64,000 nt of DNA. It comes from an uncultured Acidobacteriota bacterium (GTDB lineage Bacteria; Acidobacteriota; Vicinamibacteria; Fen-336). The number at the start of each line of letters is the position of its first letter. The stretch's first letter is position 1. Of this stretch, positions 25,347 through 38,744 are shown one piece after another. The notes beneath the pieces were generated by a model that ran no database searches, was not told the origin of the DNA, and saw only the letters and a program-made list of their open reading frames with translations. The stretch is from contig OY970399.1 in NCBI GenBank assembly GCA_963720545.1, forward strand, positions 192,001 through 256,000. Direction: 5' to 3'. The position numbers and the translations under genes were made by a program.

Positions 25347-26036
25347 ATGGATGTTCGAGAGCTGCTGCGAAGCGTGCCCATCTTCTCGGATGTGGAAGAC
25401 CCCGGCATCGAAACCCTGACGAGGGTCGTGGCCCGCAAGGTCTACCCGAAGGACGGCGTCGTATTCTTCGAGAACGAGGCGGGCGACACCCTCTTCATGA
25501 TCCTGACCGGACGCATCAAGGTCACGATCCTGGGCGACGACGGCCGCGAGATCATCCTCACCGTGCTCGGCCCCGGCGACTTCTTCGGCGAGATGTCGCT
25601 GCTCGACAACGAGCCGCGCTCGGCGACGGCAATCGCGACCGAAGAGACGGAGCTCGTGTCCCTGCAGCGCGCCGACTTCGAGACGGTGCTGTCCGACAAC
25701 AAGGAAATAGCCCTCGGCCTGATCCGCATCCTGACCCAGCGCCTGCGCCGCGCCGATCAGCAGATCGAGACGCTGGCGCTCCTCGACGTCTACGGCCGCG
25801 TCGCACGCCTCATCGTCGACCTGGCGAAGGAAGAAGGCCGCCGGCTGAAGGACGGTCGCGTCGCCTTCCGCCGCGCCACGCACCAGGAGATCGCGAACCG
25901 CATCGGCACTACCCGGGAAACCGTGACGCGCATCCTCAAGGACCTGGAGCGCGCCGGCCGCATCAAGGTGGAAGGCAGGGAGCTGGTGGTGCCCGCCGAC
26001 TACGAGAAGGTGTTCGACGAGGGCACCAGCCGCTAG
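25347..26036 (+). CDS. crp: Crp/Fnr family transcriptional regulator (CRP-like)
   Basis: cNMP-binding FGEMSL...RSA; HTH THQEIANRIGTTRETVTR. Confidence 0.88.
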   Translation: MDVRELLRSVPIFSDVEDPGIETLTRVVARKVYPKDGVVFFENEAGDTLFMILTGRIKVTILGDDGREIILTVLGPGDFFGEMSLLDNEPRSATAIATEETELVSLQRADFETVLSDNKEIALGLIRILTQRLRRADQQIETLALLDVYGRVARLIVDLAKEEGRRLKDGRVAFRRATHQEIANRIGTTRETVTRILKDLERAGRIKVEGRELVVPADYEKVFDEGTSR

Positions 26037-27364
26037 CGGCCGCCGCGATACTCGCTGAGCCGGTTGTAGAGCGTCTTGACGCTGATCTTCAGGATCTCGG
26101 CGGCGCGCTTCTTGTCGCCGCCGAGCTGCTGCAGGGTCGCCTCGATCAGCCGGCGTTCGGCCTCGGCGATCGAGGTGCCGACCTTGAAGTTCAGGAGCCC
26201 GCCGCCATGCGACTCGCTTGCGTGCAGCGGCAGCGAGTCGACCCCGATCTCGTCCTCCGCGAGTATGAAGGCGCGGTGCACCACGTTCTTCAGCTCGCGC
26301 ACGTTTCCGGGCCACGCCTGGCGCTGCAGCCTCTCGACCGCGGCCGGGCTGAAGCGTTTGGCGGTGCCCTCGTCGCGGTTGAAGGTCTTGAGGAAGTGTT
26401 CCGCCAGCAAGGGGATGTCTTCGCGCCGTTCGCTCAGCTGCGGCAGCCTGATGGGGAACACGTTGAGGCGATAGAGCAGGTCCTCGCGCAGTGTGCCCGC
26501 CGCCATTGCCTGCTCGGGGTGGCGGTTGGTGGCGGCGATCACCCGCACGTCCACCTTCAGGGCCTCGGTGCCGCCGACACGTGTCACCAGCGAGGTCTCG
26601 AGGACCCGCAGCAGCTTGACCTGCAGCTCCATCGGCATTTCGGTGATCTCGTCGAGGAACAAGGTGCCGCGGTTCGCCTGTTCGAAATAGCCGCGGTGGA
26701 CGCGGTCGGCGCCCGTGAAGCTGCCGCGCTCGTGGCCGAAGATCTCGCTTTCGATGAGGGTGGGCGAGACGGCGCCGCAGTTGACCGGCACGAACGGCTC
26801 CTTGGCGCGCCGCGACAGCTGGTGCACCGTCTGCGCCACCAGCTCCTTGCCGGTGCCGGTCTCGCCGGTGATCAGGATCGTGGCATCGGTCTTCGCCACC
26901 CGGCCGATGAGGTCGAACGCCTTGTGCATGGCGGGCGCCGCGCCGATCATCGAACCGAAGCGACCGAGGTTGCGCAGTTCGCCGCGCAGCGTGCCGATCT
27001 CGCGCTTCAGGTCCTGGGTGCGCAAGACGTTGGCAAGCGTCATCTTCAGGCGCGGCAGGTCGACGGGCTTCGTCAGGTAGTCGGCGACGCCCAGACGCAC
27101 GGCTTCGACCGCGGTTTCGACGCTGGCCTCACCCGTGATCAGCACCGTTTCGGGAATCGATTCCATCTCCTGGAGCAACTCGATGCCGCTGCCATCGGGG
27201 AGGTTCAGGTCGACGAGCAGGATATCGGGAACGCCGCTGGCGATTTCGAGGCGCCCGCCTGCGAGCGAGTTCGCCGTCGCCACCTCGAAGCCCTGGCTGC
27301 GAATGACCTCGGCGAGGCCGGCCTGGAAATCGAGGTCGTCGTCGACGAGCAGCGCGCGCGGCAT
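26033..27364 (-). CDS. Sigma-54-dependent response regulator (receiver-AAA+-Fis HTH)
   Basis: [51 protein letters not shown] 27364 overlaps the leader-ORF stop; 27370 is an alternative start. Confidence 0.92.
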
Positions 27365-27402
27365 CACCATGCCGCGATGCCCGCGGCCGAGGAAGGGAAC
27401 AT
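27364..27402 (-). CDS. Putative 12-aa leader peptide MFPSSAAGIAAW
   Basis: AGGAG 9 nt before the ATG; its TGA overlaps the regulator ATG (TGATG). Confidence 0.45.
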   Translation of the reverse strand: MFPSSAAGIAAW

Positions 27403-27433
27403 GTCGTTGGACTCCTGTGTGCCTGTTCGAAAT

Positions 27434-27449
27434 TGCAAGCGACGGGCCA
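27434..27449 (-). promoter_or_regulatory. Putative sigma-54 promoter for the activator gene
   Basis: Minus strand TGGCCCGTCGCTTGCA: GG-N10-GC with TTGCA. Confidence 0.65.
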
Positions 27450-27565
27450 GTACCGTTTCGGCCCAGGCAGCACGATTCTGGGCGCGGCCCAAGCACAATT
27501 GTAGAGTTTTCACGCTACCTGCGGGTCAAAAGCTCCAAACAATGCCGCCCACGGGCGCTTGCGAC

Positions 27566-27581
27566 CGGCACGCGTGTTGCA
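27566..27581 (+). promoter_or_regulatory. Putative sigma-54 promoter for the lmo0937-like/ferritin genes
   Basis: CGGCACGCGTGTTGCA, near-consensus YGGCACG-N4-TTGCW. Confidence 0.75.
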
Positions 27582-27641
27582 CCTGCACCGGCGAGCCGGC
27601 GACCTGGCTTCCCAGGATCACTGCCGCGCACGGAGGCTTTC

Positions 27642-36924: not shown

Positions 36925-37031
36925 TCCGCGGCGGCCTGGAATGAGCGGCTTTGGCGCGTAGGGCGGCAGCGGCGCTCGCGCAATCTACAAAACTCATTAA
37001 ACCACGGATCAAAGGCCCGATGTCGCCTTTT

Positions 37032-37047
37032 CGGCACGCGGCTTGCT
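37032..37047 (+). promoter_or_regulatory. Putative sigma-54 promoter for the sod operon
   Basis: CGGCACGCGGCTTGCT, ending 23 nt before the sod ATG. Confidence 0.75.
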
Positions 37048-37070
37048 GCCCTCCACGGGGAGGAGAACCA

Positions 37071-37688
37071 ATGGCCACCTACGCACTGCCCGACCTCGAT
37101 TACGACTTCGGTGCGCTCGAGCCGCACATCTCGGGCCGGATCATGGAACTGCACCACGACCAGCATCACAAGACCTACGTCAAGAACGCGAACGACGCCC
37201 TCGACAAGCTCGAGGAAGCCCGCGGCGCGAACGACTTCAAGGGCATCGCGGCATTGCAGCGAGCTCTGGCGTTCAACGTTTCCGGCCATGTCCTGCACTC
37301 GCTCTTCTGGAAGAACCTCGTGCCCAAGGGCGGAGAAAAGCCGGCGGGGGAGCTGGCGGCGCTCATCGATCGCGACTTTGGGTCTTTCGTCGCCTTCAAG
37401 GCGCAACTGTCGGAAGTGGCGGCAACGCTCATGGGCTCGGGATGGGCGGCCCTTGTCTACGAACCGGTTTCGCAGCGGCTCATGACGACGCAGGTCTACG
37501 ACCACCAGTCGAACGTCAACCAGGGCAGCGCGCCGCTGATGGTGATCGACGCCTGGGAGCACGCGTACTACCTGCAGTACGAGAACCGCAAGGGCGAGTT
37601 CTTCAAGGCTGTGTGGTCGCTATGGAATTGGGATGACGTCGCTGCGCGGCTCACGGCCGCGCAGGCGCTGATTGTAGAAACGTCGTGA
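37071..37688 (+). CDS. sod: Fe/Mn superoxide dismutase
   Basis: LP.L.YD..ALEPHIS, HHDQHH.TYV, H.LHSLFW, GSGW, DAWEHAYYLQY; GGAGGAG RBS. Confidence 0.95.
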   Translation: MATYALPDLDYDFGALEPHISGRIMELHHDQHHKTYVKNANDALDKLEEARGANDFKGIAALQRALAFNVSGHVLHSLFWKNLVPKGGEKPAGELAALIDRDFGSFVAFKAQLSEVAATLMGSGWAALVYEPVSQRLMTTQVYDHQSNVNQGSAPLMVIDAWEHAYYLQYENRKGEFFKAVWSLWNWDDVAARLTAAQALIVETS

Positions 37689-37702
37689 ACCGCGGAGGCG
37701 CG

Positions 37703-38467
37703 ATGAAGCCCGAACGCACGTCGGACAAAAAGAAGAAAAAAGATGACAAGGCGCCGCAGAACGCACCCTTGACCGAAGGCCTGAACACGTTCGATCGCGA
37801 TCGCGCCGGTTCGCTCGCCGACGAGGGCGGCGGCGCCGGCGCGACGATCGAGACGGAAGCGGAACTTCAGCAGGAGACAGAAGAGCAACGCGAAAGCGAC
37901 GAAAAGCCGCGCAAGCAGCCCGGCAAGGCCTCAGCCGCCCTTCTGGTTGCGGCGTTCCTGTCCTTGGCCGGCGCGGCCCACGCCGAAACGTACGCGACGC
38001 CCTTCGCGGCGCTCGCGTTCTCGGGCGACACCGACGACTCGAAGATCACCTGGGGCGGCGGGCTCACGTTCGCACCGCAAGGCGGCGGACTCGGCTTCAA
38101 CGTCGACTTCGCCAAGACGCCGGACTTCTTCGGCTCGAGCGGCGTCATCGACAACAGCGTCACCACACTCACCGGCAACCTGGTCTTGATCTCGTCGGGG
38201 CGCACCCGCTTCTACGCGGTTGGCGGTGGCGGCCTGCTGAAGACGCGCGTCAGCGGCGCCAACGGCCTGTTCGACATCGACAGCAACGACTTCGGCATCG
38301 ACGCCGGCGCCGGGCTGCTCGCGGGCGGCGACGGGCCGATCGGGCTGCAGGCAGACTTACGCTACTTCCGCGCGCTGCGCGATCCCGAGCCCGACGACGA
38401 ATTCGACGTCGATTTCGGAGAGCTCGATTACTGGCGCGCTTCGCTTGGCGTCTCGATCCGGTTCTGA
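37703..38467 (+). CDS. Outer membrane beta-barrel protein with long charged N-terminal extension
   Basis: GGAGG RBS; ~75 charged residues, then a signal-like ASAALLVAAFLSLAGAAHA, beta-strands and C-terminal GVSIRF. Confidence 0.7.
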   Translation: MKPERTSDKKKKKDDKAPQNAPLTEGLNTFDRDRAGSLADEGGGAGATIETEAELQQETEEQRESDEKPRKQPGKASAALLVAAFLSLAGAAHAETYATPFAALAFSGDTDDSKITWGGGLTFAPQGGGLGFNVDFAKTPDFFGSSGVIDNSVTTLTGNLVLISSGRTRFYAVGGGGLLKTRVSGANGLFDIDSNDFGIDAGAGLLAGGDGPIGLQADLRYFRALRDPEPDDEFDVDFGELDYWRASLGVSIRF

Positions 38468-38519
38468 CTCTCAAGTAAGACGAATGCTCAGCGCAATCAA
38501 AATCCCAAGGAGGTTCGAA

Positions 38520-38744
38520 TTGGCGGCACGAAAGAAGTCCAGCAAGCGTTATGGAGAGAAGGCGGGCACCAAGGTGGAGCGCGCGATGCACGAAATGAAG
38601 CGCGGCAAGCTGCGCTCCGGCGGCTCTGGCAAGAAGGTCACGAGCCGCAAGCAGGCGATCGCAATCGGGCTCTCCGAGGCGCGCAAGGCCGGCGGCAAGG
38701 TACCCAAGGCGCCAAAGCGAAAGAGCCGTAAGAGCGGCAGCTGA
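38520..38744 (+). CDS. DUF6496-like small basic protein
   Basis: KVE.AMHE.K.GKLRSG.SGKKVTSRKQAIAIGLSEAR; AGGAGG RBS before a TTG start. Confidence 0.8.
   Translation: MAARKKSSKRYGEKAGTKVERAMHEMKRGKLRSGGSGKKVTSRKQAIAIGLSEARKAGGKVPKAPKRKSRKSGS

Follow-up and report, generated by a model that had tools for sequence, protein, structure and literature searches.

In E. coli and Salmonella, the NtrC-type regulator ZraR works between the divergent sigma-54 promoters of zraP and zraSR; it activates both, autoregulates, and serves in envelope and zinc stress. LuxO of Vibrio, also of the NtrC type, drives multiple paralogous Qrr small RNAs from sigma-54 promoters. Genes for iron and oxidative protection, osmoadaptation and small stress proteins are usually controlled by RpoS in E. 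coli, by SigB in Bacillus and by EcfG-PhyR in the Alphaproteobacteria. The phylum Acidobacteriota, most of whose members are uncultured, ranks among the most abundant bacterial groups in soil; to our knowledge, little has been learned of the means by which these bacteria withstand drying, starvation and oxidative bursts. Here we report on a stretch of 64,000 nucleotides (the window; bases 192001-256000) of the genome of an uncultured member of this phylum, a single contig of 4.09 Mb with 68.7% G+C. We consider it likely that a block at positions 26033-38744 of the window forms the centre of a sigma-54 regulon under the response-regulator activator whose gene lies at 26033-27370. The preliminary description, made from the letters of the window, had read the block as a set of stress-type genes under sigma-54 and a dedicated enhancer-binding protein. 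This reading is now supported by a shared upstream site, by the genome-wide recurrence of that site at stress genes, and by its co-occurrence with orthologues of the activator. Two further systems offer a comparison. The available portions of two reports on Borrelia burgdorferi describe an Rrp2-RpoN-RpoS pathway in which sigma-54 acts mainly by driving rpoS, the regulon then being read by RpoS (PMC4014564, PMC1976401), and the available portion of a report on Myxococcus xanthus describes Nla28 among NtrC-like starvation activators with sigma-54 promoters which regulate other regulators (PMC9765219).

The four -24/-12 motifs reported earlier for the block were all found when the sequence was read directly. 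Each indeed faces a transcription unit, 24-105 nt from the start codon, and all units of the block have one:

27434-27449, minus strand: sigma-54 -24/-12 element TGGCCCGTCGCTTGCA, 20.9 bits; faces the activator gene (predicted autoregulation), 64 nt to the start codon
27566-27581, plus strand: sigma-54 -24/-12 element CGGCACGCGTGTTGCA, 22.0 bits; faces the DUF5670 and ferritin-like genes, 61 nt to the start codon
36909-36924, minus strand: sigma-54 -24/-12 element TGGCACGAGCGTTGCT, 22.2 bits, perfect consensus; faces the glucan synthase gene, 105 nt to the start codon
37032-37047, plus strand: sigma-54 -24/-12 element CGGCACGCGGCTTGCT, 16.8 bits; faces the superoxide dismutase (SOD) operon, 24 nt to the start codon

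The four elements form two divergent, back-to-back pairs, with the -24 elements 116 bp and 107 bp apart. The consensus for sigma-54 is TGGCAC-N5-TTGCW, in which the GG and GC doublets stand exactly ten bases apart; the block sites show 0-1 mismatch to it and all keep the doublet spacing. Across the genome the consensus occurs 6 times with no mismatch (2-4 times in three Markov-3 simulations) and 76 times with one mismatch (57-92 in the simulations). Since these totals are at the Markov-3 level, counts alone prove nothing, and it is the location of the sites that is informative. All 6 perfect sites and 36 of the 76 with one mismatch are intergenic, as against an intergenic fraction of 12.4% of the genome (87.6% being coding by our own gene caller, which is based upon G+C content at third codon positions, GC3), and 28 of these 36 are directed at a nearby gene start. 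A position weight matrix (PWM) trained on the intergenic sites of this same genome, which is circular and served for ranking only, gave the bit scores listed above for the four block sites and 48 promoter-like sigma-54 sites of at least 11 bits.

Each divergent pair has one AT-rich site at its centre, with the same motif in both pairs:

27497-27513, no strand assigned: predicted upstream activator site 1, AATTGTAGAGTTTTCAC; core TGTAGA at 27500-27505; 20.6 bits, or 15.2 bits with the relatives-only PWM
36976-36992, no strand assigned: predicted upstream activator site 2, reverse complement, TTTTGTAGATTGCGCGA; core TCTACA at 36984-36989; 20.0 bits, or 18.2 bits with the relatives-only PWM

From the centre of the core to the flanking -24 elements the distances are 53 and 63 bp at site 1 and 62 and 45 bp at site 2. 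Expectation-maximisation gave a consensus of approximately sTTTGTAGATTsTtCC. Because its best copies are true palindromes, for example TGTAGA-G-TCTACA in locus L011, we read the site as an imperfect 6-1-6 dyad, TGTAGA-N-TCTACA. A search for exact or near-exact words shared by the two intergenic regions returned little besides the promoters; the motif appeared once relatives were included. The relatives-only PWM was built from 63 upstream sequences with 41 unique sites at relatives' loci and is non-circular for this genome. At a threshold of at least 12 bits, it placed the motif 25-170 bp upstream of 10 of the 48 promoter-like sites, all four block sites included, compared with 0 of 48 in a mirrored downstream window and 1 of 135 upstream of sigma-54-like strings inside genes. 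The dyad therefore marks a subset of promoters; it is also kept in relatives and co-occurs with the activator, as would be expected of the enhancer of a specific activator, and we predict that it is one.

The genes of the block are as follows:

26033-27370, minus strand: NtrC-family response-regulator enhancer-binding protein; PF00072, PF00158, PF25601 and PF02954, in a REC-AAA+-HTH_8 arrangement
27362-27402, minus strand: upstream open reading frame (ORF) of 12 codons in the activator leader, MFPSSAAGIAAW, with a good AGGAG Shine-Dalgarno sequence
27642-27791, plus strand: lmo0937/DUF5670 small membrane protein, 49 aa; PF18919, 52.9 bits, and NF033488, 60 bits (cut-off 30)
27810-28364, plus strand: ferritin-like (Dps/bacterioferritin-like) protein; PF00210, 93.8 bits
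28387-36804, minus strand: cyclic beta-1,2-glucan synthase of the Cgs/NdvB type, 2805 aa; GH94 domains, 1967 bits over its length to PDB 8rf9 and 8rf0
37071-37688, plus strand: Fe/Mn superoxide dismutase; PF00081 and PF02777
37685-38467, plus strand: probable outer-membrane beta-barrel protein; feature likeness 0.96 to OMP_b-brl clusters, true start uncertain
38445-38744, plus strand: DUF6496 small basic protein; PF20106, 75.4 bits

Of the product labels given earlier, those of the activator, the lmo0937-like and ferritin-like proteins, the glucan synthase, the SOD and the DUF6496 protein are borne out by Pfam, NCBIfam or PDB matches. That of the barrel protein has neither a Pfam nor an NCBIfam match behind it and comes from feature likeness alone, and the ferritin-like protein falls under all NCBIfam cut-offs for Dps and Bfr. 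The activator has the features of the NtrC class, namely a receiver domain, an AAA+ domain with a loop of the GAFTGA type, and a C-terminal helix-turn-helix (HTH) of the Fis type. Its translation contains the phospho-acceptor D54, a Walker A motif (GETGTGKE), a Walker B motif and a GSFTGA loop. Every NCBIfam equivalog tried (NtrC, AtoC, ZraR, NtrX, GlrR, LuxO and others) scored below its cut-off, the best being AtoC with 392 bits against 714; ZraR reached 344 bits with a cut-off of 760. Relatives in PDB are NtrC1, FleQ, LuxO (5ep0) and ZraR. The upstream ORF ends in a TGA that shares bases with an ATG in the frame of the activator (TGATG), an overlap which suggests translational coupling of the two, and the true start of the activator is probably the ATG at 27364.

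In this genome as a whole, the block and promoters missed by the gene caller included, the first PWM of the motif finds approximately 16 sigma-54 promoters with it; in each of them one TSTASA core stands upstream of the -24 element, at a distance of 45-77 bp. A Pfam scan of 27 proteins behind such promoters, together with a search for units without an ORF, gave the following in addition to the block:

motif-bearing promoter: CsbD, then an extracytoplasmic function (ECF) sigma factor
motif-bearing promoter: BON, a YflT-like protein, a second DUF5670 protein, AI-2E
motif-bearing divergent promoters: DUF892 and DUF3309 on one side, SRPBCC and a zinc-dependent alcohol dehydrogenase (Zn-ADH) on the other
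motif-bearing promoter: YGGT and a decarboxylase dependent on pyridoxal phosphate (PLP)
motif-bearing promoter: BrkB/YihY
motif-bearing promoters: GFO/IDH/MocA and DAO-Rieske oxidoreductases
motif-bearing promoter: DAO oxidoreductase
motif-bearing promoter: a 197-aa protein, then a low-affinity iron permease
motif-bearing promoter: a 294-aa protein without a family
approximately 700044-700154 of the genome (L023:4040-4155), minus strand: candidate small RNA, copy 1, with motif and sigma-54 promoter TGGCATTTCAGTTGCT
approximately 745347-745547 of the genome (in L026), minus strand: candidate small RNA, copy 2, with motif and sigma-54 promoter TGGCATTTCAGTTGCT

By Pfam, then, the content is that of a general stress response (Dps, SOD, OsmY/BON, CsbD, DUF892, YflT and similar), and the promoters are of the -24/-12 type rather than of the type read by the sigma-70-family factors RpoS, SigB or EcfG. 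The 35 genes behind sigma-54 promoters that have no motif include HtrA, arginase, pilins, TonB-dependent receptors, HlyD, MacB, FecR-DUF6600 and a ComEA-like protein, among others. The last two entries of the list are units of about 110 nt without an ORF, each with a G+C-rich hairpin at its end; the two share approximately 95% identity as far as the hairpin and have no likeness beyond it. A tRNA gene lies near each copy, the fold z-score is only -1.75, no Rfam family matches, and BLAST found a counterpart in 0 of 40 relatives. We regard them as candidate activator-dependent small RNAs.

The cluster of BON, YflT/ActD-like, second DUF5670 and AI-2E genes (3870958-3873655 of the genome, minus strand; L032:1959-4656) has unusually low GC3 and was missed by the caller. 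Its promoter, with motif and sigma-54 element, is at 3873738-3873753, and the cluster may have been acquired recently.

Conservation was followed in 40 genomes of the same family and order. Orthologues of the activator, with 65-73% identity, occur in 23 of these, the other 17 having paralogues of at most 48% identity only, and 20 orthologue loci were fetched. These loci are dense in sigma-54 sites, and 38 of 63 sites with at most one mismatch carry the motif, a descriptive figure given that the PWM was trained on the same loci. Counted over whole genomes and without regard to orientation, the pattern TSTASA-N40-70-GGCAC-N5-TTGC gave 46 matches where the orthologue is present (23 genomes, 18 of which have at least one match) and 6 with the pattern reversed as a control. 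In the 17 genomes without the orthologue there were 9 matches and 13 in the control, and in the present genome 8 and 0. This contrast between genomes with and without the orthologue ties the site-plus-promoter architecture to this activator.

The tie appears to be confined to close kin. In 80 loci around homologues of 44-60% identity from Burkholderiales, Steroidobacteraceae and other Acidobacteriota there were 2 motif-promoter pairs in all, and we therefore do not extend the motif to those homologues. The orthologue is rare outside the order: in a sample of 200 genomes of the phylum, only 5 had a match to the activator at E <= 1e-140, and these gave 1, 1, 1, 0 and 0 pattern matches, which is noise level. 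Some pattern matches are not enhancers, an example being TCTACAAC, which falls within the end of the activator gene that codes for the HTH. As a separate observation, a sigma-54 site on the same strand lies just past the activator stop codon in four relatives (L002:8915-8930, minus; L004:8854-8869, minus; L010:10407-10422, plus; L017:4416-4431, plus), and TCTACAAC, in the HTH-coding end (LYNR), is found 53-73 bp upstream of these four 3' sites, where it may be an enhancer inside the activator gene or a coincidence.

The activator gene is itself often close to the site. The motif is at most 450 bp from its 5' end in 12 of the 20 orthologue loci. A same-strand sigma-54 site with motif lies directly upstream of it in L007 and L016, with weaker candidates in L002, L011, L012, L013 and L019, and in L005, L006 and L017 the gene is inside an operon begun by a motif-bearing promoter. 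Hybrid PAS/GAF histidine kinases are encoded directly upstream of it in L005, L006 and L013, behind motif-bearing promoters. Of the 103 ORFs called downstream of motif-bearing promoters in relatives, 63 were scanned with Pfam; for each promoter these were the one to three nearest whose composition resembled that of coding sequence. The scan gave BON (seven times), DksA/TraR zinc-finger proteins (five), Omp85-like proteins (three), ferritin-like proteins (two) and CsbD (two), together with DUF3309, DUF5670, a DnaK-GrpE-DnaJ operon, AI-2E, OmpA and an M48 peptidase; 16 had no family, and the activator itself appeared twice.

Three relatives keep an island resembling the block. In G024 (C1, approximately 478-496 kb) the activator, Dps, barrel protein, SOD and glucan synthase are encoded within about 17 kb; G027, a genome of another family, has Dps, activator and glucan synthase at approximately 19-34 kb of C4; and in G006 (C186) there are genes for SOD, Dps and glucan synthase. 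Each of the three has motif-plus-sigma-54 promoters, such that the genomes which keep the promoters also keep the island. The identity of the G024 and G027 islands (activator 72-73%, Dps 73-78%, glucan synthase 60-63%) is above that of most genomes of the same family. Since the promoters are narrowly kept and the island is kept in these three, the periphery of the regulon is plastic and lateral movement possible; from these identities the island may have moved laterally.

Based upon this arrangement we propose the following mechanism, all steps of which are predictions from sequence. A histidine kinase would phosphorylate the receiver domain at Asp54, and the activator would assemble on a single imperfect palindrome, TGTAGA-N-TCTACA within sTTTGTAGATTsTtCC, centred 45-77 bp upstream of the -24 element or about -70 to -105 from the predicted start site. 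The AAA+ ring, through its GSFTGA loop, would then use ATP to open the closed complex of the sigma-54 holoenzyme. One site would drive the two divergent promoters of the activator gene and of the DUF5670 and ferritin-like genes; the other would do the same for the cyclic glucan synthase on one side and the SOD, barrel protein and DUF6496 protein on the other. As the activator gene is among its own putative targets, the activator would raise its own level by positive feedback. The approximately 16 promoters would thus act as one switch, thrown under stress, which would put iron and oxidative protection under common control with periplasmic glucans, small general-stress proteins and the two candidate small RNAs. 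The mechanism would be the ordinary enhancer-dependent one of sigma-54, in a new role and with a newly defined enhancer and a concrete regulon; the general-stress role we infer from gene content alone.

Several observations weigh against this proposal. Each promoter has a single site, where many NtrC-type activators work from sites in tandem, and the SOD promoter at 37032-37047 is the weakest of the four at 16.8 bits and would leave a leader as short as about 13 nt. In this genome the activator has no kinase gene next to it, and a search with the hybrid kinase that is linked to it in relatives gave no clear orthologue here, the best match having 41% identity. The relatives are kin rather than independent samples, and 5 of the 17 genomes without a detected orthologue, with completeness of 77-100%, do have pattern matches. 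The GC3-based gene caller is crude and misses low-GC3 genes. Conservation of the promoters upstream of orthologues of the block genes, as the regulon of the preliminary description implies, is present for the activator in several loci and in few for the SOD, ferritin-like protein and glucan synthase. Orthologues of the glucan synthase have sigma-54 site and motif in 3 of 26 loci (G024, G027 and the second G006 copy). Those of the ferritin-like protein have a sigma-54 site within 1.1 kb in 4 of 16 loci, with the motif as well in 3 (G024, G027, G006). The SOD has orthologues in 7 of the 40 relatives, at 8 loci; 3 of these loci (G024, G012, G006) have an upstream sigma-54 site, and 2 of the three have the motif as well. 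Finally, sigma-54 need not be the sole route to a stress response, given the presence of the following gene:

3162622-3163527 of the genome (L156:323-1228), plus strand: group-2-like sigma factor, 301 aa; besides rpoD, the only sigma-70-family gene with region 3

This protein scores 226 bits with the rpoS model (cut-off 379) and 165 with that for rpoH (cut-off 323), and is below the cut-offs for RpoS, RpoH, SigB and FliA. With its discovery, the idea that the genome is without an RpoS-like sigma factor was dropped.

The explanation that best survives beside ours, and which we nevertheless judge unlikely, is that the regulon is narrower, concerned with osmotic and desiccation or envelope stress in the manner of ZraSR or Psp in enterobacteria. 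The general stress response may then belong to the group-2-like sigma factor or to ECF sigma factors, one of which is encoded in a member operon. The cyclic glucan, BON/OsmY-like, OMP, Omp85 and AI-2E members do point to envelope and osmotic adaptation. Against such a restriction, other members are cytoplasmic, oxidative or iron-related (SOD, ferritin-like, DUF892, CsbD, YflT-like and PLP decarboxylase), those in relatives include DksA-like genes and DnaK-GrpE-DnaJ, and the breadth of the gene set is that which is well established for RpoS, SigB or EcfG regulons.

It is less probable still, and on balance improbable, that the sigma-54 promoters are real and the AT-rich motif is bound by an architectural protein of the IHF/HU type or by another regulator, with one or several of the other 12 activators of this genome serving the promoters. 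A candidate for such a regulator abuts the activator gene:

25347-26036, plus strand: Crp-family regulator gene, converging on the activator gene with a 4 bp overlap of the ends

In L017 a Crp-family gene heads the motif-plus-sigma-54 operon that ends in the activator, the motif is AT-rich, single and loosely like the sites of bending proteins, and binding of the activator to it is a prediction. However, the gene at 25347-26036 is not syntenic in relatives, where tblastn found it in 1 of 20 loci with 25% identity, and the true palindromes seen in the better copies of the motif are what one would expect a dimeric HTH protein to read. Only about 16 sigma-54 promoters have the motif, and these are all of the stress type; the 35 others that were examined lack it. 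Across genomes it tracks the activator orthologue, standing by the 5' end of its gene in the majority of orthologue loci. The divergent -24 elements, at 116 and 107 bp, leave little room for separate activator sites.

That the -24/-12 matches arose by chance in GC-rich sequence, with the genes read from sigma-70-type promoters, is scarcely credible, for although genome-wide consensus counts equal the Markov-3 expectation and many non-productive sigma-54 sites have been reported in E. coli (in the available portion of PMC4591121), the sites are strongly intergenic, all four of those in the block face genes at close range and share a conserved upstream site in an arrangement that recurs in relatives, and a sigma-70 consensus scan of 25000-39500 gave 0 sites against 0.6 expected, this being a weak test for the phylum.

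Beyond the regulon under the activator at 26033-27370, a wider proposition may be put forward tentatively, at somewhat less than an even chance. In one order of soil Acidobacteriota, the master switch for general stress, that is for dormancy and survival, could be sigma-54 with a single autoregulated NtrC-type activator and not a sigma-70-family factor. This activator would read one palindromic enhancer (TGTAGA-N-TCTACA), often common to two divergent promoters, and would directly command Dps, SOD, cyclic glucan, BON, CsbD, DksA-like genes, DnaK and small RNAs; the core island may move between families.

The activator carries all the parts that action on sigma-54 requires. A Pfam profile search found a single rpoN gene in the genome, inside the window, and 13 strong Sigma54_activat matches genome-wide; a second activator domain lies in the window at approximately 11106-11606. 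An Rfam scan of the window gave two tRNAs only. The rpoN domain, and one further sigma-54 site in the window that is without the enhancer motif, are as follows:

63486-63959, plus strand: DNA-binding domain of rpoN; PF04552, 215 bits, the sole match in the genome
4554-4569, plus strand: sigma-54 site TGGCACTCTTCCTGCT, 16.4 bits, preceding an OMP_b-brl gene at 4648-5337

The site at 4554-4569 probably belongs to a separate regulon, that of the neighbouring activator. It has a near-identical counterpart, TGGCACTCTTCTTGCT, in a relative (L005, at 1877).

It would be unusual for bacteria to run their survival genes by sigma-54 and one dedicated activator. The preliminary description had not recognised a regulon of this kind as described, in agreement with our full-text literature searches, which returned no description of a sigma-54 general-stress regulon in Acidobacteria, subscription journals being outside their coverage. 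The main text of a 2025 cross-phylum paper on sigma-54 regulons (PMC12316311) nowhere contains the terms Acidobacteri, general stress, superoxide or Dps. If our reading is true, a survival programme can be read from the DNA as an enhancer of 13-17 bp and a -24/-12 promoter. Its control logic would be unlike that of RpoS, SigB or EcfG, and its dependence on an ATP-driven, phosphorylation-gated activator would permit a very tight off state. The reading yields a regulon of approximately 16 promoters in this genome, the DNA site itself, and a candidate sensor pathway in the hybrid PAS/GAF kinases that are linked to the activator in relatives.

Among the systems with which we began, Nla28 differs from the present activator in lineage, binding site and developmental context, so far as the portion of its report goes. 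Homologues of the activator in Burkholderiales, with 50-60% identity, are without this motif. LuxO and the Qrr RNAs have a parallel in the two nearly identical candidate small RNAs behind motif-plus-sigma-54 promoters; these have no sequence relation to Qrr (no Rfam match), form a minor part of a protein-coding regulon, and were found in none of the relatives. As in the Borrelia pathway, to judge from the portions of the two reports, sigma-54 and one response-regulator activator would stand atop a global adaptive response, with the difference that here sigma-54 promoters directly precede the stress genes and have a conserved enhancer site. ZraR shares with the present system one site amid back-to-back sigma-54 promoters, autoregulation and a stress-related function, the binding being predicted here. 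It differs in serving one locus, as against approximately 16 promoters, and the system described here has TGTAGA-N-TCTACA as its DNA site and no adjacent kinase gene. In gene content the closest likeness is to the RpoS, SigB and EcfG regulons, with Dps/ferritin-like proteins, SOD, OsmY/BON, CsbD/YjbJ, YciE/F (DUF892), YflT, an amino-acid decarboxylase, osmoprotective glucans and small membrane proteins. Those regulons, however, are governed by sigma-70-family factors under proteolysis or partner switching, whereas the one proposed here would be governed by sigma-54 and an ATP-driven enhancer-binding protein.

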